Source: Escherichia phage YD-2008.s. From it: a stretch of 44,613 nucleotides of DNA. Under the pieces are notes generated by a model. That model had not been told where the DNA came from, made no database searches, and saw only the letters and a program-made list of their open reading frames with translations. Location of the stretch: the sequence record NC_027383.1; one strand, 5' to 3'. A program made the position numbers and the translations under genes. Below are positions 4,987-14,457 of the stretch, piece by piece. Position 1 is the first letter of the stretch. Every line of letters begins with the position of its first letter.

Positions 4987-5191
4987 TCGCAGTCCGCGAG
5001 TCGTGGACGAAATTGTTAAACGCTACCAAATTAATCCGAGGGAGAACAAAGTGCGGCGGGTCAGCCGCCCGGAGCAATTGCTCGGCCTGGACCTTACCGG
5101 TTGGCTTGTAATGACGGCCCGCTGCCATCTTGTGTGTGACACGTTTTCTGCCCGTATTGTTCGTGAAAATTTGATTGAGGAATTGAAATGA
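4967..5191 (+). CDS. hypothetical protein (74 aa)
   Basis: ORF overlapping both neighbours in the early operon. Confidence 0.4.
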   Translation: MNILVVDRSPRVVDEIVKRYQINPRENKVRRVSRPEQLLGLDLTGWLVMTARCHLVCDTFSARIVRENLIEELK

Positions 5192-5658
5192 AATTACTGA
5201 TTTGCGATTTGGATGGAGTTATTAACGGTTCAAGCGATGCGCGCGCTGACCTGGTGCCGGGTATAAAAACTAAATCCACCTTTTGGGCGAAGTGGCACAA
5301 AGCGCACGTCCGCGAAGACCTGAACATGGATATGCTGCCGCTACTGCGCATGTATAAAGAGCAAGGCTTCGAGATCGCGTATCTGACCAACCGGCAGCGA
5401 GAATGTTGGGACACCACCGCCGAGCAATTGGAGGTCTTCCCGGTAGGCCGGTTGTTTATGCGCCACATGCTGGACGACACCCCGCCGCCTGAGTTTAAAG
5501 CGTGCGCCGTGTTCAAAATGGTATGCTACGCGGACGTGTCGGAACTTGTCATCATTGAAGATTGCGAGAAGAACATCGCGGCAATTCGTCGGGCGTGTGG
5601 TGATTTGGTCCCGAAAATTTACGCAATAAACGTTGCAAAATTCACTTGCAACCAATAG
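5188..5658 (+). CDS. HAD-superfamily phosphatase/nucleotidase-like protein
   Basis: 156 aa; N-terminal DxDGV motif (LICDLDGVINGS) typical of HAD motif I. Confidence 0.55.
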   Translation: MKLLICDLDGVINGSSDARADLVPGIKTKSTFWAKWHKAHVREDLNMDMLPLLRMYKEQGFEIAYLTNRQRECWDTTAEQLEVFPVGRLFMRHMLDDTPPPEFKACAVFKMVCYADVSELVIIEDCEKNIAAIRRACGDLVPKIYAINVAKFTCNQ

Positions 5659-5675
5659 GTTGGTTGCACTATAGT
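5646..5675 (+). promoter_or_regulatory. sigma70-like promoter TTGCAA-N18-TATAGT overlapping an inverted GCAACCAAT/ATTGGTTGC box pair
   Basis: -35 5646-5651, -10 5670-5675; inverted repeat GCAACCAAT agg TTGGTTGCA inside the spacer. Confidence 0.45.
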
Positions 5676-5722
5676 AAACGTGTCGGAGGCAATACTGCCC
5701 CCTCACTAAAAAGGGTAATACT

Positions 5723-6277
5723 GTGAAAGCATACGAATACTGCAAAAACGCTGCCACCACTATGGAACAGCGCGGGAAAGAAAACGGCTATGACAACGCG
5801 AAAGAAGAACGCAGCGCTAAACAGATCGCCGCCGTGTTTAACGCGCTTACCGGTCGCGACCTTACCGAGCAAGAAGCCTGGACCTTCCTGATCTGCCTGA
5901 AGCTGGTGCGCCAGCACCGCAAGCACCAGGAAGATAACATCGTGGATCTGGTGGCGTATGCCGCCCTGCTGGGCGAGTCTTACATGACCGTTCATGATGA
6001 GATTCAGATCGATACAACGGCAGCACAATTCGATAGCCTCAAAGGCCTGTCCGTGCGCCTGGACGGCGAGATTAATGCGTATAACAGCGCAATTCGCGTT
6101 GCAGAGGACACGGTGGCCTCGTTCGGCAAGACGGTTAAGGCCACCAATTTTGGAGTTGTAGCCCAGGACGTCCAGCCTATGGTCGTGCTCACCGGCGAAG
6201 ACGGATCGAAAATCTGCATGACGCAGGAAGATTTCCGTAACATGGAAAAAACACTGGTGACTGGCGCACTTAAATAA
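5723..6277 (+). CDS. hypothetical protein (184 aa)
   Basis: GTG start with AAGGG RBS ~7 nt upstream; follows its own promoter. Confidence 0.5.
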   Translation: MKAYEYCKNAATTMEQRGKENGYDNAKEERSAKQIAAVFNALTGRDLTEQEAWTFLICLKLVRQHRKHQEDNIVDLVAYAALLGESYMTVHDEIQIDTTAAQFDSLKGLSVRLDGEINAYNSAIRVAEDTVASFGKTVKATNFGVVAQDVQPMVVLTGEDGSKICMTQEDFRNMEKTLVTGALK

Positions 6278-6319
6278 TTCTAATCGCGGGCTTCGGCCCG
6301 CATCAATGAGGGGTTCACA

Positions 6320-6895
6320 ATGTACGGCGAATATGAAATATCTGGTAAACAATTCCACCTGGCGGCAATGATAGCAAGCATCGAGTTTGACCAGTGGCGG
6401 TATAAGTCCGACGCGTGCAAGCAAAGCCGTCTTGTCGGTGTGCTGGGCGAAATGTTTGCAGGCATGTACCTCGAAGGCCAGGCGGGCGGGCGTAGTTGTA
6501 TCCCGCAAGGTTTGCTAATGCGTACCGGCCTGTTTAGCGCTAATACTATCGACCGCGGCGATATTATCATGGTCGGCAAGCGCAAGGTAAAATCCGGCCC
6601 CGACTTCCGAGAACATACGATTGATGCCGTCTGGACATACGAGGTCAAAGCTACCAGCGGCATCCGTCGCGGGCTGGTTGAGGCACGTTGCGCTCGCGAA
6701 TACCTTACCCGTCGCGTTGCCGGTGTTATCCTTGTGGGCGTAGATTTCGGGCAACATAGCGCGCGCGGCGTGATCGAGGATATCGCGGAGCCATACGTGA
6801 TAGTGAACGACTGGCCACTGGTGGAAGTGGATGGTAAGGAATACTACGAAAGCCCGCTGGTGCGGCGCAAAATGGACTGGGAGAACTCAAACTAA
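6320..6895 (+). CDS. hypothetical protein (191 aa), possible PD-(D/E)xK-like
   Basis: GAGGGG RBS before ATG 6320; DIIMVGKRK...TYEVKAT weakly resembles a D...E-x-K nuclease signature. Confidence 0.45.
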   Translation: MYGEYEISGKQFHLAAMIASIEFDQWRYKSDACKQSRLVGVLGEMFAGMYLEGQAGGRSCIPQGLLMRTGLFSANTIDRGDIIMVGKRKVKSGPDFREHTIDAVWTYEVKATSGIRRGLVEARCAREYLTRRVAGVILVGVDFGQHSARGVIEDIAEPYVIVNDWPLVEVDGKEYYESPLVRRKMDWENSN

Positions 6896-6916
6896 AAAAG
6901 GGGCCGTATGGCCCCT
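6896..6916. terminator. bidirectional intrinsic terminator between convergent genes
   Basis: AAAAAA GGGGCC gtat GGCCCC then T-rich; T-run on the minus strand, A-run on the plus side. Confidence 0.6.
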
Positions 6917-6921
6917 CCTAT

Positions 6922-9093
6922 TCATTTCTTCAGCGCCGCGATCTCGGCCTCCATAGCCTCGATCTTCTGCATCAACACTTGCACAACGTGCATGGTGTCC
7001 AGTAACAGCGGGGTAGTATCCAGTTCTTTCTGCGTTACGTCAGGTGTGTCACTGGTCAGTCCAGAGTATGTCCGGGTCTTGACGTAAAGACTATCCACAA
7101 CTTCCGCTTGTTGTGCAACGAGGCCGCGGCGTTGACGACCTTGCGTGTCGTTATTGTACACAAACGTGTGGAACCTTAACGCCTTGATATTACTCCACGC
7201 TTTATCAACGGTTGTAGGCGTGATGTCATGTTTCATATTGGCATCAGACACAGCACTTGTGACGAACTGGTAGTTGCCGGACGTACCTGATGATGCCGGG
7301 GCACCGTCTGCGGTAAAAGAAAAGGTTCGTTCGGTTACACCTGCGTCCTGTAGCACTAGCTGGTGACCACGGGTTGTCGCGTTACCACCAATCTGTCTGA
7401 ACGAATACGACAACGTTTCGTAGTTTACAGCGGTTCCAATTTTATAGGTCGACTTGATCATGCCCCCATTCACGGTGACACCGGATACTGGTGACGTAGT
7501 GTCTGCGTTTTCAACACTCCACGACGTATTGGCCGCTACGAATCCACCGGATGCACGGATCACCCAGACGCCTACGAAGTTACGGCCCATAATTTCATCG
7601 GTAGATCTTCCGTAGATAGGGTTTGACTGCGATGCGTCAACCACGAGGGTATTAAAGCGTCCGGATACTAAAGGTACAGTAGTTTCCGGAATTGCAACAC
7701 CTGCTCCGGCAGGGAATAGGTCGTTGTTTGTTTTAAATGCACCTTCAGTGATATCACTGAATATCTGAGCGTATGTCGATGCAGAATAACCAGCAACACT
7801 GCCAGAGATATTAGGTGCTGCTGATTCAAAAATCTGACCATTTGTGGAAGAAGTACCGCCATCACCACGACCATACAAGCCGGGTATTGAGTTAACTTGT
7901 ACACCGTTACGGTCGGGTACGCGAAACGTTGTCGTACCATTACCGAGCGAGTATTTACCGCGTTTTGCTGGGTCTGCCAGCCAGTCGGCGTCACTGATAG
8001 GTGAGAGCATCTGAGCATAAGCCCAAAGTTCAGGCCAGTCAGCGCGGTTAAGAAGCTGCCCGTCTGAGACGACTTCATAAGGCTGAATATATGCGCGACT
8101 ATCACGCAGGTGGAAGTCGCCGACACCGTAGTTCATCACGCCATTCATTGTTGGGCCAACTGTGCCCGTGTTAATCATGTTCTGCACCCAGCGCTTAGTA
8201 ACGGCGTCGTAGTCGTTAACTGGGTCGCCAGCAAGCGGCGTGGCCCCATCCGGGCGAACGTTAAGCCAGGCTTGCGGTTTGTCGGTGAGTCCTGCCAGGT
8301 TGCCGGATTTGGTTAGCAGGTCATCCACGTTTACGCTTTTCGCCCACTCCTCGGCCTCGTTACGGTATCCCAGCGCGGCATCACGGGCGGCTTGCGCATC
8401 AGTCTTCGCTGTATTAGCCTCGTCGCGAATAACGCCGGTGTCAGTCTTGATCTGGTTCGTTTGGTCTTTGATCGCCTGCGTATCAGCCTTAATCTGGGCA
8501 GTCTGCGTCTTTATGGTATTAGTGGCGTCGTGGATCGCCTGCGTATCGGCCTTGATTTGGTTGGTCTGCGTCTTGATGGTATTGGCATCGTTCTTGAAGC
8601 CTTCGGCCTCATTGCGAAATCCTTGCGCTGCTGCTTCAGACGCGGCGGCTTGTTGTTGTAGGTTGCGCATTTCAACGGGGTCGATCTGCTTCATCAATTG
8701 CGACAGGTAGCCCCATGACATACCCTGCATAACTTGCCCGTTGGGCAGCGTAACGGTGATCTCTTCAGCGTCGCCGAAGATTGCACGCCAGTTGTTTTCA
8801 TCCGCAATCATCAAGCGCAATGCTTTCTGTGCCTGGACTGTTACGCCCATCGTCGCCAGTGACATGGTATCGCGCGCAACGCCATCCCAGGCAAGGCCGG
8901 TTGCCGTGGGGCCGTCGAACGGCAGCACCAGCGTAAGCGCGGTGTCGCTTTCGACGGACGCGATAGCAACAGTGTAAGGGACTTGCCCCACCACCAGCGT
9001 TAAGAAGTCGCCAGCTTTAAACGCGGTGAACGTCGTGCCGACACCGACTACCGCCTTGCTGTTATTCGTTACGGATAGTGTACCCGCTGCCAT
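6922..9093 (-). CDS. tail fibre protein with C-terminal intramolecular chaperone (peptidase S74-like) domain
   Basis: 723 aa; 21-aa tandem coiled-coil repeats (NTIKTQTNQIKADTQAI...); C-terminal ~105 aa starts with an S-D-x-x-x-K motif (SDANMKHDI) and ends in a coiled coil. Confidence 0.65.
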   Translation of the reverse strand: MAAGTLSVTNNSKAVVGVGTTFTAFKAGDFLTLVVGQVPYTVAIASVESDTALTLVLPFDGPTATGLAWDGVARDTMSLATMGVTVQAQKALRLMIADENNWRAIFGDAEEITVTLPNGQVMQGMSWGYLSQLMKQIDPVEMRNLQQQAAASEAAAQGFRNEAEGFKNDANTIKTQTNQIKADTQAIHDATNTIKTQTAQIKADTQAIKDQTNQIKTDTGVIRDEANTAKTDAQAARDAALGYRNEAEEWAKSVNVDDLLTKSGNLAGLTDKPQAWLNVRPDGATPLAGDPVNDYDAVTKRWVQNMINTGTVGPTMNGVMNYGVGDFHLRDSRAYIQPYEVVSDGQLLNRADWPELWAYAQMLSPISDADWLADPAKRGKYSLGNGTTTFRVPDRNGVQVNSIPGLYGRGDGGTSSTNGQIFESAAPNISGSVAGYSASTYAQIFSDITEGAFKTNNDLFPAGAGVAIPETTVPLVSGRFNTLVVDASQSNPIYGRSTDEIMGRNFVGVWVIRASGGFVAANTSWSVENADTTSPVSGVTVNGGMIKSTYKIGTAVNYETLSYSFRQIGGNATTRGHQLVLQDAGVTERTFSFTADGAPASSGTSGNYQFVTSAVSDANMKHDITPTTVDKAWSNIKALRFHTFVYNNDTQGRQRRGLVAQQAEVVDSLYVKTRTYSGLTSDTPDVTQKELDTTPLLLDTMHVVQVLMQKIEAMEAEIAALKK
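8405..8600. repeat. ~63-bp tandem coding repeats inside the tail fibre gene
   Basis: GATCGCCTGCGTATC(A/G)GCCTT(A/G)AT...GTCTGCGTCTT(T/G)ATGGTATT repeated about three times. Confidence 0.6.
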
Positions 9094-9114
9094 AGCTGAA
9101 TCCTCTTAAATTGG

Positions 9115-9143
9115 TTGCATTCTTGGTTGAGCGGTGCAATACT
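9115..9143 (+). promoter_or_regulatory. candidate promoter for the plus-strand lipoprotein gene
   Basis: TTGCAT 9115-9120, N17, AATACT; weak -10; contains TTGGTTGCA box and an inverted TTGGTTGAG/CTCAACCAA pair. Confidence 0.3.
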
Positions 9144-9173
9144 AAAACTCAACCAAATATAGGGGATGATACC

Positions 9174-9392
9174 ATGAAAACTTTAATTATGATTTGTGCG
9201 GTTCTTTTGTCGGGTTGTGCCAACATGCCGTCTAAAATCTGCGACGCGACATATGTTAATAGCGGCATGGAATACTCGGTCCCGGTGTTCGGTGTTGCCG
9301 ATTTTAGTGGGCATAAAATGTTGCGGGCGGGCTACCCGTTCAACTTCCGGTATGTTTCGGTAGACCACTTCAAAAGCACCACTTGCAAATAA
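9174..9392 (+). CDS. small outer-membrane lipoprotein, Cor-like superinfection-exclusion candidate
   Basis: 72 aa; signal peptide MKTLIMICAVLLSGC with lipobox LSGC; opposite strand to the flanking tail genes. Confidence 0.45.
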   Translation: MKTLIMICAVLLSGCANMPSKICDATYVNSGMEYSVPVFGVADFSGHKMLRAGYPFNFRYVSVDHFKSTTCK

Positions 9393-9411
9393 GCCCCGAA
9401 AGGGGCTTTTC
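9392..9411. terminator. bidirectional intrinsic terminator
   Basis: AGCCCC gaaa GGGGCT followed by TTTT; sits between convergent ORFs. Confidence 0.6.
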
Positions 9412-10081
9412 ATATCCCATCCACGTTAATTGCGGTCAGCGCAACGCCGGTGTTTTGATACCCAGCGATGCTACCAGACCCAGCCTGCGTAGCGACTGCG
9501 TTAATGCGAGTTCCGCTTCCGTTGTCGTAAGCCCCCGCCCCTGCCGAGATCTGGATAATCTGCGGCTGCCCCTGTACGAATATCTGAATAAGAGTAGCCC
9601 CCATTAACATAGGTGATACCGCGTACTTACCCGGCAGCGTCTGGTCTATGTTGATACCGCCGTTATTGCCGAAGCTGCCAACTGTGACTAAATCGGTGAG
9701 TACCTTGCTTTCGTTGGTGAGTATGCAAGTCCCGCTGGCGTCCCAAATAGCAAACCCCCATCTCGGCAGCGGTTGCGGGAATCGCGCGAATATGTACGCC
9801 GTGACGGTAAAATGTGGGTTATTCTGCCCCTGAATGCTTCCGCTAAATATAATCCGGTTACCTGATCGTGACGCCGCCAGGACGCAACGGTTATCTGACC
9901 GCATAAACACCATCGCCGGATAGTTCGCGGGAATATCCACGCCCCCGCTTGCGGTTTTATAATCAGCACCGGCGTCCACTGAATTTGCCGACACCTTAGC
10001 GTAGAGGACGAACGGCGTTGAGTTTGGCGTGACGAATGGGTTGCCGTTGTTGTTATCGATTAACGCGCCGAAGTTTGCCAT
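9410..10081 (-). CDS. tail-associated protein, function unknown (223 aa)
   Basis: GGAGAA RBS; lies between the J-like gene and the tail fibre; Gly/Ser/Thr/Asn-rich like fibre components. Confidence 0.5.
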   Translation of the reverse strand: MANFGALIDNNNGNPFVTPNSTPFVLYAKVSANSVDAGADYKTASGGVDIPANYPAMVFMRSDNRCVLAASRSGNRIIFSGSIQGQNNPHFTVTAYIFARFPQPLPRWGFAIWDASGTCILTNESKVLTDLVTVGSFGNNGGINIDQTLPGKYAVSPMLMGATLIQIFVQGQPQIIQISAGAGAYDNGSGTRINAVATQAGSGSIAGYQNTGVALTAINVDGI

Positions 10082-10083
10082 TT

Positions 10084-10386
10084 TTACGCTTTCTCCACAA
10101 AAACTACTACTTCACATTCTGACGCCGGGTAGTTTCCAATACCGACGCTGTTTGCCGCAGATACTGTTATCGTGTTCCCGCTGGCACGGATCGCCCGACC
10201 TACCGTAGTGCCGCCAACGTCCAGCGTAACCGCAAAACCCACTTTCATACCGGACGGAATATCGAACGACCACGCCCCCCATGTTTGACCTTGTGCCAGT
10301 TTAATAATTCCGACAACTGAAACGGGCTTGATCCCGTAGTTGTTTGGTCGCCCTTGCGCGTCCCATGTTGCGACACCGAAAGCCAT
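10084..10386 (-). CDS. tail-associated small protein (100 aa)
   Basis: Track ORF 10084..10485 trimmed to ATG 10386 with GGAGG RBS, downstream of the J stop. Confidence 0.45.
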   Translation of the reverse strand: MAFGVATWDAQGRPNNYGIKPVSVVGIIKLAQGQTWGAWSFDIPSGMKVGFAVTLDVGGTTVGRAIRASGNTITVSAANSVGIGNYPASECEVVVFVEKA

Positions 10387-10423
10387 GTTATACCTCCAAA
10401 AGAAAGGGGCCGAAGCCCCTATG

Positions 10424-13400
10424 CTACCAACTACCTGTGATTTCACCAATCTGCACGCGGAGCACGCCGTTTCCGTCCCTAACACTGATTTGCGTGTTAG
10501 TCTGTTTCATCCCGCCGCCGTTACCGGTTCCCAGGTTGATAAACGTTCCATCTTTCCCTAAGCGCCAGCCGCGCGTGCTGCCGTCGTAGTTATTAGATTG
10601 CAGCGTGTCCGTGATCTGCGCGAAGTTGATAGTCGCGTCCTTGATGCGTGCCGTGTCAATATACACCGCGCCGCCGTCCACGATAAACGCGGACGAAAGC
10701 GACCCGTTAGATGGGTGCATGATGTAGAACTGGTCCGCCTTGAACGCGATGCGGGATTTAACCGCGCCACCTTCCGCAACAACAGAAAGCTGCATACCGG
10801 CATCGTAGTAAGTCCCTTTATACGTCACGCCAGCCTTAAGACTGTACGTGGCGCTGCCACCAGCATGGTTAAACGAGGACGTCATCTTCTGCTCGATAGC
10901 GGCGGACTGCTGACCGAACTGTGTCGCGACCTGGGTCTTATATTCCGCCAGCGCTCCCGCCACGTCTGCGGTTGCCGTTTGTACCTGCTGGATGGCGGCT
11001 TCCTGTTCCCCGAACTTAGCGGCGACAGTTTGCTGATACTGGGCGAACGCTTGTTCCTGTGTGCTCTGTGCGGTCTGCAACGTGTGGATCGCCGCTTCCG
11101 CGTCATCAAGTCGCGTGCCGATCAACGTCTCCAGTTGAGCTACCGCCTTGTGGGCGTCCGCCGCCACGTTATACGCGACCGAGATTTCCGCATAAATACC
11201 CTTGTACTCGGCGCGGGCGTTGAACAATTGCTGCGCATCGGTGAGCATCGCCTCGTAAATACCCTGCGGGATCGTGTTGATTGCTTCCTGGAAGCGTTTA
11301 CCATCCTCGGAAGTCAAGAACTCGTCATCAAGCCCCTTCATGTACTCGTCAACTTTGTCACTCACCTGCCCCTCAAACGGGGCCGACCAGTCCGACAGGT
11401 TGCCGATTTTATCCGCTACGCGTGCGCGCAACTGCTGGTATATGCCGAACTCAAGCGACGTTTGCGCGTACTCCGCGCCAGGATATGGGACGTTTGTTAA
11501 GAATTTCCATTCCGTTTCGCCCGTCTTGCGGACTTCAAGCTCGGTGTAAGAGATATCCGTCGCAGCGTTGTTGTGGTTCCACTTCCACAAAATCTGGTGA
11601 AGGCCAGAAATCGCGTTGGTGATGATTGGTGCGTTAAGCCCACCGAGGCGACCTTCCACCGGCGTGATCGCGGAAGACACCCACGGGGACGAGATTTCGC
11701 CCATGCCAATTGCGCGGACGCGTGCCTGGTAGTTGCCGGAGAACACGTTAGGGATGTGCGCACCATTCGACGCCGTGCGCGGGATATTCACCCAGTCGTT
11801 ACCCCACTGGATTTCCATATTCTGAAGGCTGGTACGTCGCCACTGGATTTCATACACCACGGCATCTTTCACCGGCGGGAAAACAATATCCACGTTGGTG
11901 ATTAGCTGGCCTTGCGATGAAATCTGCGACGGAGTTATGGTCACGGACTCCGGCCCCTTCATTACACCGTCCGGCACTTGCGTAAAGATTCCGGGGTCAA
12001 GGCGAGCGCCATTATCAACGGCATCATATTTGCTATCGTTGTATTCAATCCCGCGCACCGAGAAAGTGCTCGTAGAGTCGTCATATTCCAGGTCGGTGAT
12101 GCGGAATTTTTGCAACTGGATATCGTCGCCATCAACGCAAAACGGTTGGTCTGGAATCGGGTCGGCATCCAGTGCGGTTTTTAGCGTGACCTTGTTGCCG
12201 TTGACGCTGGCGATCTCGCGAGTCTCGACATTTCCGCTATCGGTGCGTACCAGGAACTTATCGCCAGGGCGGAACGTGATTTCGCAGTCCGTGTTCAGTA
12301 CGGTACGCGTTCCGGGGTCTGACAACAGGCGACCGCCGCGAGTCTCGAATCCGCCAGAAATATTAGTATCTGCGATCGCAACTACGCTACCGGGGATAAA
12401 GAATAACCCCTCCATGCCAACTTTAAAGCTGACCTGCTGGTCCAACTGGTTGGATATTAGTGCCCAGTGCCCGCGGCGTTGCGCTTCAGATTCGCGCGTA
12501 CAGCCGATCGCCGTTATATCAAGACGGTTAATCTTATGGCGGCGCACCAGTTCGACGCGCTGGCCCGTCGCTATAGCGTCATCATAGTGGTTTTTCGGGT
12601 TGCCGTATGCTACCGCGAAAGTGGAGTACCGCGTTTTCTGGCTGCCAGATGCGTAGTCGAAGCGCCCATCAATAACCGATGCGTTGGTGATAGTGTGGGA
12701 CACCGCGGCTACTGGTTGGTCACTGACTATATTCAACATCTGGTTGCCCCACCAGGTCATTCCGGCAAAGATGGCAGCCAAATCCTTAAGCACGGTCCAG
12801 GCATCCGTCTGAGACTGAATGTACATATCATTCTTAAAGCGGATTTCTCGACCACCGTTGCCGTCGCTGACCAACTGATCGCAGCGCTGCGCAATCTGGT
12901 AGAGCGCGTACCGGTTTAACATTTGCGGTTTGATACGCCGACCGAGGCCGAAGCGCTCAGTAATACAAATATCGTACCAGTGCCACGCAGGGTTATCCGT
13001 CCATGCGCGTTTAAACGTGCCGTCCCAGTCCCCGGAATAGGTATGATTAATCGGGTCGTAGTTGTTCGGTATTAGAACTTTACGGCCTTTGCACTTGATG
13101 GACACGCGCGGGATGTTCTGGAACGCTTTGGCGTCGAACTCCACAAACAACAGCGCGGTTAGCGGGTAACGCAGGCGGGCGTCGATAATCTCCGTGATGG
13201 ACTGCACCCGGATATCATTAACCACTTTCGCCGATGTGGAGTCTGCCGTTATGCGGTGCACCTCCACGCGCCAGCCGGTGTTAACGTTAGGCGGTAGCTC
13301 GATGCGGTGATCTCGCTCGTACAGCGACATTGTTTTACCAACGGCAGCGAATGTAAACTCACGCGGGTCTGCGTTATCCGTATACACAACGATCTTATAG

Positions 13401-13843
13401 TCGATGCGCCCGCCCACCAGGTCGCCATTATCTTCGCTAGTGTACAGGGCAGGTATACCGATGCGAACGCGCACAGCGTCAAGACTGGTGTCGTTAATCT
13501 GTCGCACCCACGGCGTGCCGTTCTCCAGTTTTACCCCAACGGATTGCTCACTTTCCACCGCTGAAAATCCGTGGATCACATCCTGGTGCTGTGTTCCGGG
13601 GCGGAACTCCACACGCGCTCCTGGGAAGTTTTCGGACAGGTCTGCGTTCTGGATCGGTGTTCCGTCCAGGTATACACGCTGCCGCAATTCGCTGGCGCTC
13701 GTAATGCCTTCGAATTCACCCTCGCCCAACGCGAGCAAGATGCGGATTTTAGCCAGCGAATGCAGGCTATCGGGCGTCTCCTGTGGGGTGTGCTGTTTGC
13801 CGCCGCCGCCTTTATGGCCCGTGACGTCGTAGATAATCGTCAT
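10424..13843 (-). CDS. central tail fibre / tip attachment protein, lambda gpJ-like
   Basis: ~1139 aa; N-terminus MTIIYDVTGHKGGGGKQHTP... resembles the gpJ N-terminus; ATGA overlap with upstream gpI-like stop; track start 13909 rejected. Confidence 0.75.
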   Translation of the reverse strand: MTIIYDVTGHKGGGGKQHTPQETPDSLHSLAKIRILLALGEGEFEGITSASELRQRVYLDGTPIQNADLSENFPGARVEFRPGTQHQDVIHGFSAVESEQSVGVKLENGTPWVRQINDTSLDAVRVRIGIPALYTSEDNGDLVGGRIDYKIVVYTDNADPREFTFAAVGKTMSLYERDHRIELPPNVNTGWRVEVHRITADSTSAKVVNDIRVQSITEIIDARLRYPLTALLFVEFDAKAFQNIPRVSIKCKGRKVLIPNNYDPINHTYSGDWDGTFKRAWTDNPAWHWYDICITERFGLGRRIKPQMLNRYALYQIAQRCDQLVSDGNGGREIRFKNDMYIQSQTDAWTVLKDLAAIFAGMTWWGNQMLNIVSDQPVAAVSHTITNASVIDGRFDYASGSQKTRYSTFAVAYGNPKNHYDDAIATGQRVELVRRHKINRLDITAIGCTRESEAQRRGHWALISNQLDQQVSFKVGMEGLFFIPGSVVAIADTNISGGFETRGGRLLSDPGTRTVLNTDCEITFRPGDKFLVRTDSGNVETREIASVNGNKVTLKTALDADPIPDQPFCVDGDDIQLQKFRITDLEYDDSTSTFSVRGIEYNDSKYDAVDNGARLDPGIFTQVPDGVMKGPESVTITPSQISSQGQLITNVDIVFPPVKDAVVYEIQWRRTSLQNMEIQWGNDWVNIPRTASNGAHIPNVFSGNYQARVRAIGMGEISSPWVSSAITPVEGRLGGLNAPIITNAISGLHQILWKWNHNNAATDISYTELEVRKTGETEWKFLTNVPYPGAEYAQTSLEFGIYQQLRARVADKIGNLSDWSAPFEGQVSDKVDEYMKGLDDEFLTSEDGKRFQEAINTIPQGIYEAMLTDAQQLFNARAEYKGIYAEISVAYNVAADAHKAVAQLETLIGTRLDDAEAAIHTLQTAQSTQEQAFAQYQQTVAAKFGEQEAAIQQVQTATADVAGALAEYKTQVATQFGQQSAAIEQKMTSSFNHAGGSATYSLKAGVTYKGTYYDAGMQLSVVAEGGAVKSRIAFKADQFYIMHPSNGSLSSAFIVDGGAVYIDTARIKDATINFAQITDTLQSNNYDGSTRGWRLGKDGTFINLGTGNGGGMKQTNTQISVRDGNGVLRVQIGEITGSW

Positions 13844-14457
13844 TCGTTCAAATCCTCGGTTACGATTCCGGCTGAAATAATAGCGCCACCGATCTCGCGC
13901 TCGCCCCATAATACACCAAGTGCTGTGCCTTGCGCGGTCGTGTTTACTGGTCCGCCGAACGCATACGACGCCTTGTTATCCACGTCCTGCCTTGTCTGCA
14001 ATCCTTTCGGTTGTGGCGACAGCAATTGCATAACGCCACCCAGCGCCATCGACATCCCGAACGAAAACGTCGCCGTACCGATAGCGGCAGCGGTTGCAGC
14101 CGAAGCCCCGAAAGCGGCAGTAGCAAGTCCGCCCGTATAGAACGACGCCACTACGATCGCGACACCCGCCAGCAATTGTCCCAACCCTCTTTTTGCGCCA
14201 GTCATAACCGGCGCGATGGTAACGACGCGGTTGCCGTGGAACTCTCCTAGCTCATCATAGCCGGTCATTGTGTGGTCGCCTTTGCGCACCTTGAACATCA
14301 TGTTGTCCAGGTGGGCCGACATTAAAAAGTCTTGTAACCCTGGCAACTTCACACACAAGCCGGTGATTCCTTCGCCCGGAGTGAAGCAATCCAGCTTATG
14401 CACTTTTCCGAATCGACGCCCTAAGACGCCGTACAATTTAAACGTTGTCATTGCCAT
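13840..14457 (-). CDS. tail assembly protein, lambda gpI-like
   Basis: 205 aa; position between K-like and J-like genes; Ala/Gly-rich hydrophobic C-terminal half. Confidence 0.55.
   Translation of the reverse strand: MAMTTFKLYGVLGRRFGKVHKLDCFTPGEGITGLCVKLPGLQDFLMSAHLDNMMFKVRKGDHTMTGYDELGEFHGNRVVTIAPVMTGAKRGLGQLLAGVAIVVASFYTGGLATAAFGASAATAAAIGTATFSFGMSMALGGVMQLLSPQPKGLQTRQDVDNKASYAFGGPVNTTAQGTALGVLWGEREIGGAIISAGIVTEDLNE

Follow-up and report, generated by a model that had tools for sequence, protein, structure and literature searches.

Closest described fibers

The closest described relatives of the fiber analyzed here are the lateral fibers of Dhillonvirus, represented in BASEL by RuthEpting (Bas85) Gp29 and by those of GeorgBuechner and PaulFeyerabend, which have been described as a coiled coil with a T5-like tip and a chaperone, serving to cross the O-antigen (PMC8594841, PMC11990801). 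"T-shaped" fibers with two receptor-binding domains (RBD1 and RBD2) comprise Tequintavirus IrisVonRoten Gp24, Wifcevirus ManiWeber Gp114, and Gordonclarkvirinae AnnaHegner Gp10 (Humolli et al. 2025, PMC11990801). The 1,076-aa LtfA of DT57C carries a branch (LtfB) and threads into the LtfC ring; its O22 versus O87 specificity is set by the divergent C-terminal part, and a pfam13884 cleavage site has been predicted in the protein (PMC4728585). In PDB 8hqz (chain d), LtfA is resolved at the N terminus only (PMC10713586), and therefore this entry gives no structure for the region homologous to the fiber studied here.

Peptidase S74 chaperones, including those of K1F endosialidase (3gw6), GA-1 gp12 (3gud), T5 pb1, and the MyRF ICA (7dc3), are C-terminal domains of trimeric fibers; each opens with an S-x-x-x-x-K dyad and has a small β core that leads into a long C-terminal helix. 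The homologous domains of K1F endosialidase, GA-1 gp12, and T5 pb1 are released. Coiled-coil shafts are also found in phage fibers, as in the segmented shaft of T4 fibritin and the heptad-based helix of the T7 gp17 proximal shaft, which contains FRNEAEGFKN-type motifs.

A predicted Dhillonvirus lateral tail fiber gene

The window analyzed is the 44,613 nucleotides of Escherichia phage YD-2008.s (NC_027383.1), a Dhillonvirus genome with 93.5% identity to SSL-2009a. An earlier note on this DNA had placed an open reading frame (ORF) at 6922-9093 and assigned it to a tail fiber, and both calls were borne out. The ORF runs on the minus strand from 9093 to 6922 with a start, MAAGTLSVTNNSK, that is kept in homologues; its 723-aa product matches PHROG tail fiber families (E values of 1e-189 and 9e-125), and homologues in BASEL Dhillonviruses are annotated as lateral tail fibers. 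By context comparison, gpJ and the RBP/cor locus lie upstream of the gene, as expected from the Dhillonvirus gene order. The gene and its first domain are as follows.

6922..9093, minus strand: predicted lateral tail fiber gene, a single ORF of 723 aa plus stop, identified by PHROG families and Dhillonvirus context
8686..9093, minus strand: N-terminal tail-anchor domain, aa 1-136, defined by conservation among Dhillonvirus homologues

The N-terminal 136 to 140 aa or so are 91 to 99% identical in all Dhillonvirus homologues, and the anchor (aa 1-136) has no counterpart in the T5-like and Wifcevirus homologues. Its first 72 aa match the N terminus of 23gd_B, a PDB chain with the deposited name "distal tail protein gp20." This first module would be a genus-specific anchor attaching the fiber to the tail tip. 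Judging from the genus-specific anchor and the gene position, the product is a Dhillonvirus lateral (side) tail fiber.

Besides the anchor and the genomic position, the fiber has a coiled-coil shaft and an S74 chaperone C terminus in common with the described Dhillonvirus fibers, whereas its distal 460 aa are a different mosaic and include a putative Gp12-like RBD1 that is missing from many Dhillonvirus fibers of about 600 aa. The segment of aa 260-723 is homologous end to end with IrisVonRoten Gp24 (homologous blocks, aa 260-575 and 603-722), with 59% identity in RBD1 (Gp24 aa 19-325) and 50% in the chaperone, and Wifcevirus WFC shows 63% identity over 98% of the same segment. In contrast to the T-shaped fibers, in which the module stands on a separate proximal fiber, here it is fused to a siphovirus anchor and a coiled coil in one polypeptide. 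DT57C LtfA is matched by aa 212-570 (LtfA 489-841, covering the RBD1 region; domain E value of 1.5e-118) and by aa 612-722 (LtfA 955-1073). Both proteins end in a pfam13884 domain and are predicted to combine a helical trimerizing shaft with a distal region specific for the O-antigen; they differ in their N-terminal attachment, in length, and in the LtfB branch carried by LtfA. In the protein search, no database protein exceeded 77% identity over 82% of the fiber length.

The architecture has been published before, and the fiber represents a new mosaic allele of it. Since this fiber design is well known, the finding is ordinary though correct, and it leaves the current understanding of phage fibers unchanged; it would widen the known range of the dual-RBD module (Gp12-like/T5-like) to include small Dhillonvirus siphophages. 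Very probably, the gene encodes a homotrimeric Dhillonvirus lateral fiber built of five modules: an anchor, a heptad shaft, RBD1, a distal β domain, and a self-cleaving S74 chaperone. What the sequences and models show for this explanation is homology of the domains, invariance of the dyad, a chaperone fold, a heptad register, and length polymorphism in relatives.

Predicted receptor-binding region between the shaft and the chaperone

The third and fourth modules lie between the shaft and the C-terminal domain.

7507..8316, minus strand: putative Gp12-like RBD1 with a conserved neck, aa 260-529, by homology to IrisVonRoten Gp24 and DT57C LtfA
7594..7833, minus strand: hypervariable head of RBD1, aa 421-500, by the drop in identity relative to its flanks
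7249..7506, minus strand: compact distal β domain at the T5-like RBD2 position, aa 530-615, by the AF2 model and alignment to Gp24

Among homologues, the RBD1 head shows 35 to 88% identity, compared with 80 to 90% in its flanks, and T5-like phages have stand-alone proteins of some 300 aa that share 74% identity with the RBD1 region. Just six matches were returned when the variable region alone was used in a word-indexed protein search, a count that reflects a sensitivity limit and is no sign of rarity. Two results were counted against the five-module explanation. One is the Collar domain (PF07484), which scored 15.3 bits in this fiber and stayed below the cut-off of 24, whereas the aligned position passed with 26.9 to 27.1 bits in homologues P0013, P0015, and P0021. 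The other is the full-length AF2 monomer model, which is mediocre overall (pLDDT 66, pTM 0.27) and poor across RBD1 (pLDDT 32 to 60 in places), with nothing informative on that domain.

For the distal domain, AF2 predicted long β-hairpins (aa 540-603) with a pLDDT of about 80 to 92. The segment at the RBD2 position is some 100 aa shorter than that of IrisVonRoten Gp24, with 27 aa here versus 125 aa there between the aligned blocks, and most close relatives are longer by 70 to 90 aa overall. Fold searches retrieved neither T5 pb1 nor the T5 tip, and RBD1-only stand-alone proteins are known in T5-like phages. All of this would fit a deletion remnant of a T5-like RBD2 without a binding role, in which case the fiber would effectively be a single-RBD fiber whose chaperone folds a stub. 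We consider such a remnant unlikely, given that a regular β domain is predicted confidently and that P0081 at least, the best relative of aa 530-615 (71% identity), shares the compact arrangement, which suggests a maintained variant rather than debris.

With aa 530-615 taken as a domain in its own right, RBD1 would provide Gp12-like receptor binding, and the small β domain would sit where a T5-like RBD2 is expected. Together, the two modules are predicted to bind a glycan, most likely the O-antigen or a similar surface glycan; the phage would thereby cross the glycan layer, and the central fiber would then engage an outer-membrane protein receptor. The host range determinants are predicted to lie in aa 260-615, and swapping this region together with its cognate chaperone should reprogram host range. 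The earlier note had attached host range to the repeats and the chaperone that flank this region. That link is indirect, the chaperone helping the fiber to fold and the shaft determining how far it extends; the specificity domains themselves had been overlooked.

Heptad shaft and its length variants

The second module and the repeats associated with it map as follows.

8335..8679, minus strand: coiled-coil shaft, aa 139-253, by heptad register and AF2 helix
8521..8583, minus strand: 21-aa/63-nt unit, copy 1, aa 171-191, NTIKTQTNQIKADTQAIHDAT, by repeat search and self-identity
8458..8520, minus strand: 21-aa/63-nt unit, copy 2, aa 192-212, NTIKTQTAQIKADTQAIKDQT, with 18 of 21 aa as in copy 1
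8395..8457, minus strand: degenerate third unit, aa 213-233, with 7 of 21 aa as in copy 2
8603..8631, minus strand: flanking direct repeat, upstream arm, AAQGFRNEAEGF, by repeat search (family D2; arm spacing, 252 nt)
8351..8379, minus strand: flanking direct repeat, downstream arm, AALGYRNEAEEW, by repeat search (family D2)

About 15 uninterrupted heptads follow one register over aa 150-254, with A or T at position a, F, I, A, Y, or W at d, and K or R at e, so that the a and d positions are apolar or β-branched throughout. AF2 modeled the shaft as a single unbroken helix over aa 139-253, with a pLDDT of 80 to 89 over approximately aa 170-250 and of 68 to 72 toward the N-terminal end. The shaft weakly matches that of T7 gp17 (E value of 0.022), with FRNEAEGFKN-type motifs in common with aa 168-249 of gp17; unlike the segmented shafts of T7 gp17 and T4 fibritin, the heptads here are uninterrupted and form 21-aa super-repeats. 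The shaft is proposed to be a trimeric α-helical coiled coil of roughly 17 nm that would act as a spacer.

The basic period of the shaft is 7 aa (21 nt), since protein self-identity reached 0.30 to 0.36 at each multiple of 7 over a background of about 0.07. In the DNA, self-identity at an offset of 63 was 0.49 versus 0.31 in codon shuffles (z = 6.3), and the offset of 21 gave z = 4.5, values that place the periodicity well above chance. The repeat search returned two 63-nt copies (8444-8506 and 8507-8569) with 73% identity. Three to four coiled-coil repeats of 21 aa, encoded by 63-bp tandem repeats, had been claimed previously. Of these, two clear copies stood, together with the periodicity and the 21-aa super-repeats, while the remaining copies proved to be degenerate and the true period to be the heptad. 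The label "tandem repeat array" was rejected as too strong: the DNA of the units has diverged too far, and Tandem Repeats Finder detected no array in 6500-9500 even at a minimum score of 30.

Shaft lengths in relatives fall into classes of +21, +14, +7, 0, −7, −14, −21, −28, and −84 aa, and the differences are nearly always multiples of 7 aa. The 63-nt unit, present in two copies in this genome, occurs in zero to three copies in relatives: it is single copy in HH3 (P0015) and P0016, and CHD5UKE2 has three units, two of them 100% identical. Phages bob, Pubbukkers, and PaulFeyerabend have exactly 84 aa fewer, and in these the two flanking direct-repeat arms are joined. The counts of one (HH3), two (here), and three (CHD5UKE2) indicate that expansion and contraction do occur, as had been anticipated together with a proposal to check copy number in related genomes. 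The unit of shaft variation is the heptad, beyond just the 63-nt block. Over evolutionary time, duplications and deletions between internal repeats would lengthen or shorten the shaft in steps of whole heptads. Whole-heptad changes are tolerated by the shaft, and among the relatives the length of the coiled coil varies in a clean natural series.

The spread of zero to three copies, and the identical units in CHD5UKE2 that point to a recent duplication, might also be taken to mark an actively unstable contingency locus at which 63-bp units are frequently gained and lost, giving length variants within one population. We regard this as very improbable. The copies in this genome are just 73 to 76% identical in DNA, with a longest exact repeat of 15 nt, and no array was detected by Tandem Repeats Finder. 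In addition, most relatives share the modal length, namely 34 of 45 when counted by protein and 24 of 36 when counted by phage record, or roughly two thirds to three quarters. The pattern suits infrequent events that persist when the heptad register is preserved, rather than rapid switching, and a diversity-generating or phase-variation mechanism for the shaft was rejected on the same evidence. Because the unit copies have diverged, instability in this genome should be low.

Shaft length may influence host range. A bolder reading, which we hold only tentatively and think more doubtful than not, is that the fiber represents a one-polypeptide form of the T-shaped dual-RBD type whose RBD2 is pared down to about 85 aa and has a fold of its own, and that the heptad-quantized shaft polymorphism within the genus (zero to three units, spanning about 12 nm) adaptively tunes reach to the thickness of the host glycan layer.

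Predicted self-cleaving C-terminal chaperone

The fifth module and its putative catalytic residues are listed below.

6925..7248, minus strand: peptidase S74/intramolecular chaperone domain, aa 616-723, by Pfam, dyad, fold, and profile search
7246..7248, minus strand: Ser616 codon; predicted nucleophile, with which the released chaperone would begin, invariant, aligned with residue 1 of 3gud_A
7231..7233, minus strand: Lys621 codon; Lys of the Ser-Lys dyad and its predicted general base, invariant

An S-D-x-x-x-K motif about 105 aa from the C terminus had been read in the earlier note as the start of an S74 chaperone, with an HMM search suggested as a check, and this reading held on four lines of evidence. 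First, PF13884 matched the fiber with 36.1 bits (cut-off of 22; E value of 7.8e-9), aligning aa 616-666 with profile positions 1-52 of 58. The motif is SDANMK (aa 616-621), and the domain that it opens takes up the final 108 aa, after the β-hairpin domain of aa 540-603. Second, Ser616 and Lys621 are invariant in 65 homologues, in which the chaperone domains are only 29 to 70% identical, and also in a redundancy-filtered set of 14 sequences. Invariance of the dyad at such domain identity implies selection for catalysis. Third, the chaperone model (pLDDT 88.7) shows a small β core and a long C-terminal helix (aa 693-722); Foldseek matched it to 7dc3 with a probability of 1.00 (TM to target of 0.57 to 0.61) and to 3gw6 with a probability of 0.99, and the fold also matches 3gud. 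Fourth, a domain profile of the 14 sequences searched against the PDB recovered 7dc3 (2.6e-8), 6f45 (4e-6), and 3gud (0.002), reaching the MyRF ICA, phage S16 gp37, and the GA-1 chaperone. Sequence identity to the S74 chaperones (3gw6, 3gud, T5 pb1, and 7dc3) is just 12 to 16%. A single-sequence phmmer search of the PDB with the last 122 aa found DT57C LtfA alone, the profile being needed for the remoter matches.

The chaperone would trimerize via its C-terminal helix, template the folding of the preceding β structure, and then remove itself through Ser616/Lys621-catalyzed cleavage of the bond before Ser616. Autocleavage of the fiber in virions is predicted, and the mature fiber should end at residue 615. 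It is very improbable that the domain stays on the mature fiber to cap it structurally or to serve as an additional binding module: it is well folded in the model and no cleavage has been demonstrated for any Dhillonvirus fiber in the literature examined, but the dyad is invariant in otherwise divergent domains, the homologous K1F endosialidase, GA-1 gp12, and T5 pb1 domains are released, and the deposited GA-1 chain 3gud_A begins exactly at the Ser aligned with Ser616. Precise boundaries for the five modules aid annotation and engineering.

Overlapping and downstream elements

ORFs on the opposite strand over the repeat region (e.g., 8240..8710, plus strand) were rejected as mirror-frame artifacts of a repetitive coding region with biased composition. 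One further element lies just downstream of the fiber gene, starting 3 nt past its stop codon.

6896..6919, minus strand: intrinsic-terminator-like hairpin with a 10-bp stem, including 6 G-C pairs, followed by a T-run

An S74 chaperone at the C terminus of the lateral tail fibre

Across 94% of its first 25 kb, the window is 93.5% identical to Escherichia phage SSL-2009a and to further Dhillonvirus genomes. The fibre is encoded as follows:

9093..6922, minus strand: lateral tail fibre gene, single ORF, 723 aa

Tail-fibre PHROG profiles match the product (E 1e-189 and 9e-125), and homologues in BASEL Dhillonviruses carry the database label "lateral tail fibre protein," which upholds its assignment as a tail fibre in the earlier note. 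The fibre start MAAGTLSVTNNSK is kept in homologues, as revealed by an alignment of 65 of them, and a strong hairpin with a T-run starts 3 nt past the stop codon. Residues 1 to 72 (8878..9093, minus strand) match the N terminus of the 199-aa PDB chain 23gd_B, "Distal tail protein gp20" (E 1.9e-4), as well as phrog_9922, "minor tail protein"; they may form a tail-attachment module common to both.

The same note had proposed a self-cleaving S74 chaperone at the C terminus. The motif SDANMK is found at aa 616 to 621, with 108 aa from there to the C-terminal end, and an HMM search placed Pfam PF13884 (Peptidase_S74, "chaperone of endosialidase") at aa 616 to 666 with 36.1 bits versus a gathering score of 22. 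Only seven columns are invariant in the whole protein among the 65 homologues, two of them being S616 and K621, and the homologues' chaperone domains share just 29 to 70% identity with that of the window. The invariance of both residues also holds in a redundancy-filtered set. The AlphaFold2 model of aa 530 to 723 is confident (mean pLDDT 88.7), and Foldseek matched it to the intramolecular chaperone domain of MyRF (7dc3; probability 1.00, TM to target 0.57 to 0.61) and to the K1F endosialidase chaperone (3gw6; probability 0.99). Searched as a profile, the chaperone domain hit 7dc3 at E 2.6e-8, 6f45 (long tail fibre of phage S16) at E 4e-6, and 3gud at E 0.002; the 3gud chain opens with the Ser aligned with S616. 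By its sequence, the fibre C terminus carries every defining feature of the S74 family that a sequence can reveal, and we infer that the fibre cleaves itself in virions. The S74 domain is precomputed in databases for nearly all fibre homologues, and that pfam13884 domain and the same cleavage site had already been predicted in the homologous LtfA and LtfB of DT57C (PMC4728585).

A heptad coiled-coil shaft of variable length

Three to four 21-aa repeats had been suggested for the shaft. The repeats are real, but they amount to two copies: the units at aa 171 to 191 and 192 to 212 are identical at 18 of 21 residues in the protein register, and a DNA repeat search returned two 63-nt copies with 73% identity, whereas the unit following aa 212 shares just 7 of 21 residues and Tandem Repeats Finder reported no array in the fibre region. 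Self-identity maxima occur at every multiple of 7 aa, which indicates an underlying heptad period; DNA self-identity compared with codon shuffles gave z = 4.5 at offset 21 and z = 6.3 at offset 63. About 15 unbroken heptads run in one register from about aa 150 to 254, with A/T at position a, F/I/A/Y/W at d, and K/R at e. AlphaFold2 predicted a single helix at aa 139 to 253, which would be about 17 nm long under standard helix geometry. Given the heptad period and the two good copies, the shaft is more aptly called a heptad coiled coil carrying a 21-aa super-repeat in two copies.

Copy number varies among relatives. The segment delimited by two fixed motifs was measured in 45 database homologues that have the same anchor: it spans 117 aa in 34, 110 aa in 7, 103 aa in 1, 96 aa in 2, and 33 aa in 1. 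A spread of phage records was sampled as well; in the 36 that covered the segment fully, length differences were 0 (24 records), −7, −14, −21 (5 records), −28, −84 (2 records), +14, and +21, and one further record of low identity stood at −6. The 21-aa unit occurs exactly once in the homologous protein of HH3 (P0015) and three times in CHD5UKE2, where two 63-nt copies are 100% identical in DNA, indicative of a recent duplication. bob, Pubbukkers, and PaulFeyerabend lack 84 aa, through a deletion whose junction unites the two arms of a flanking direct repeat:

8603-8631 and 8351-8379: arms of the direct repeat, 252 nt apart

The type phage HK578 (NC_019724.1, 21831-22438; locus L004) has a different heptad family at the same shaft position, with AVTAKND-type heptads followed by a 14-aa unit (AETARDQ ANTAKTG) present about three times, so whole repeat families are exchanged, beyond copy numbers alone. 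These data show that the shaft repeats do expand and contract over evolutionary time, as had been anticipated, with length classes mostly in 7-aa steps, and this heptad-quantised series is a detail worth keeping. Since the window's own copies have diverged (longest exact match, 15 nt), high-frequency length switching is unlikely in its shaft.

A mosaic distal part

The predicted specificity region, missed by the earlier note, lies between the shaft repeats and the chaperone. Segment-by-segment comparison with homologues revealed a mosaic.

Identity of fibre segments to homologues
aa 1-140, anchor: 91-99%; Dhillonviruses only
aa 141-260, shaft: 61-91% in most, with lower values or no alignment for a few shortened shafts; Dhillonviruses only
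aa 261-420: 80-90%; shared as well with proteins from contigs that are T5-like (about 108 kb) or Wifcevirus-size (about 68 kb)
aa 421-520: 35-88%; variable
aa 521-615: no higher than 71%; variable

The best full-length match reached 74 to 77% identity over 82 to 84% of the query, and this allele is, on the aligned sequences, a new mosaic. Stand-alone proteins of ~300 aa (P0121-P0124, 277 to 322 aa, including the Salmonella phage VSe12 tail fibre) cover only aa 257 to 551 at 72 to 74% identity, representing the Gp12-like RBD1 without RBD2 or the S74 domain. They sit on 73- to 110-kb contigs, mostly T5-like in size, and could be true short fibres or the products of split genes; the RBD1 boundary is partly defined by them. 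Between RBD1 and the chaperone, AlphaFold2 predicted a confident beta-hairpin domain. This compact candidate RBD2 has one close counterpart only, the homologous protein P0081, among the best 120 matches, and the T5 pb1 tip was not retrieved by fold searches with the compact distal segment, so its "T5-like" status is only putative.

IrisVonRoten Gp24 and its Wifcevirus and Gordonclarkvirinae counterparts were described by Humolli et al. 2025 (PMC11990801) as "T-shaped" fibres, in which a Gp12-like RBD1 precedes a T5-like RBD2 and the chaperone, with O-antigen as the probable ligand. The window's fibre is homologous to IrisVonRoten Gp24 at aa 260 to 575 (Gp24 19 to 325, 59% identity) and aa 603 to 722 (Gp24 451 to 568, 50% identity), but its RBD1-to-chaperone segment is about 100 aa shorter. 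Homology of its distal part extends to fibres of Wifcevirus and Gordonclarkvirinae and to residues 489 to 841 and 955 to 1073 of DT57C LtfA. In DT57C, recombination showed that the divergent C-terminal part of LtfA switches the phage between O22-like and O87 hosts (PMC4728585). Gp29 of the Dhillonvirus RuthEpting combines a coiled coil, a T5-like tip, and a chaperone (PMC11990801). The architecture is already published, and the earlier interpretation is essentially correct and the finding ordinary; the putative dual-RBD module in a Dhillonvirus is worth keeping.

We propose that three chains would join via the shaft and the C-terminal helix of the chaperone. As family knowledge suggests, the chaperone would template folding of the distal beta domains and then cut the bond before Ser616, with the Ser616/Lys621 dyad as the predicted catalyst. 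By analogy with the BASEL and DT57C work, the mature fibre would bind a surface glycan, most likely O-antigen, letting the phage cross this layer before the central fibre meets its porin receptor; its reach would be set by shaft length.

Neighbouring genes

On the minus strand, gpJ is followed by two small genes and then by the fibre gene.

13909..10424, minus strand: gpJ
10084..10485, minus strand: small gene, phrog_557 ("outer membrane protein") match
9410..10081, minus strand: small gene, phrog_425 ("membrane associated protein") match
9111..9392 (likely start ATG at 9174), plus strand: Cor-type superinfection-exclusion lipoprotein gene (phrog_1119, E 1.3e-27; lipobox LLSGC)

The two small genes correspond to what Maffei et al. 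[quoted passage not shown] As listed, ORF 10084..10485 overlaps the gpJ end by 62 nt and its profile match begins at aa 34, so translation probably starts inside the listed ORF. The Cor-like gene separates the RBP locus from the fibre gene, is encoded on the other strand, and is the immediate upstream neighbour of the fibre start. By analogy with Cor of T1, phi80, and N15, this neighbour suggests that FhuA is presumably the terminal (porin) receptor. Three plus-strand genes (5188..6895) converge on the fibre gene: one polynucleotide-kinase-like (phrog_415), one of phrog_9871, weakly similar to families named "phosphofructokinase," and one of phrog_10558, a family with no assigned function.
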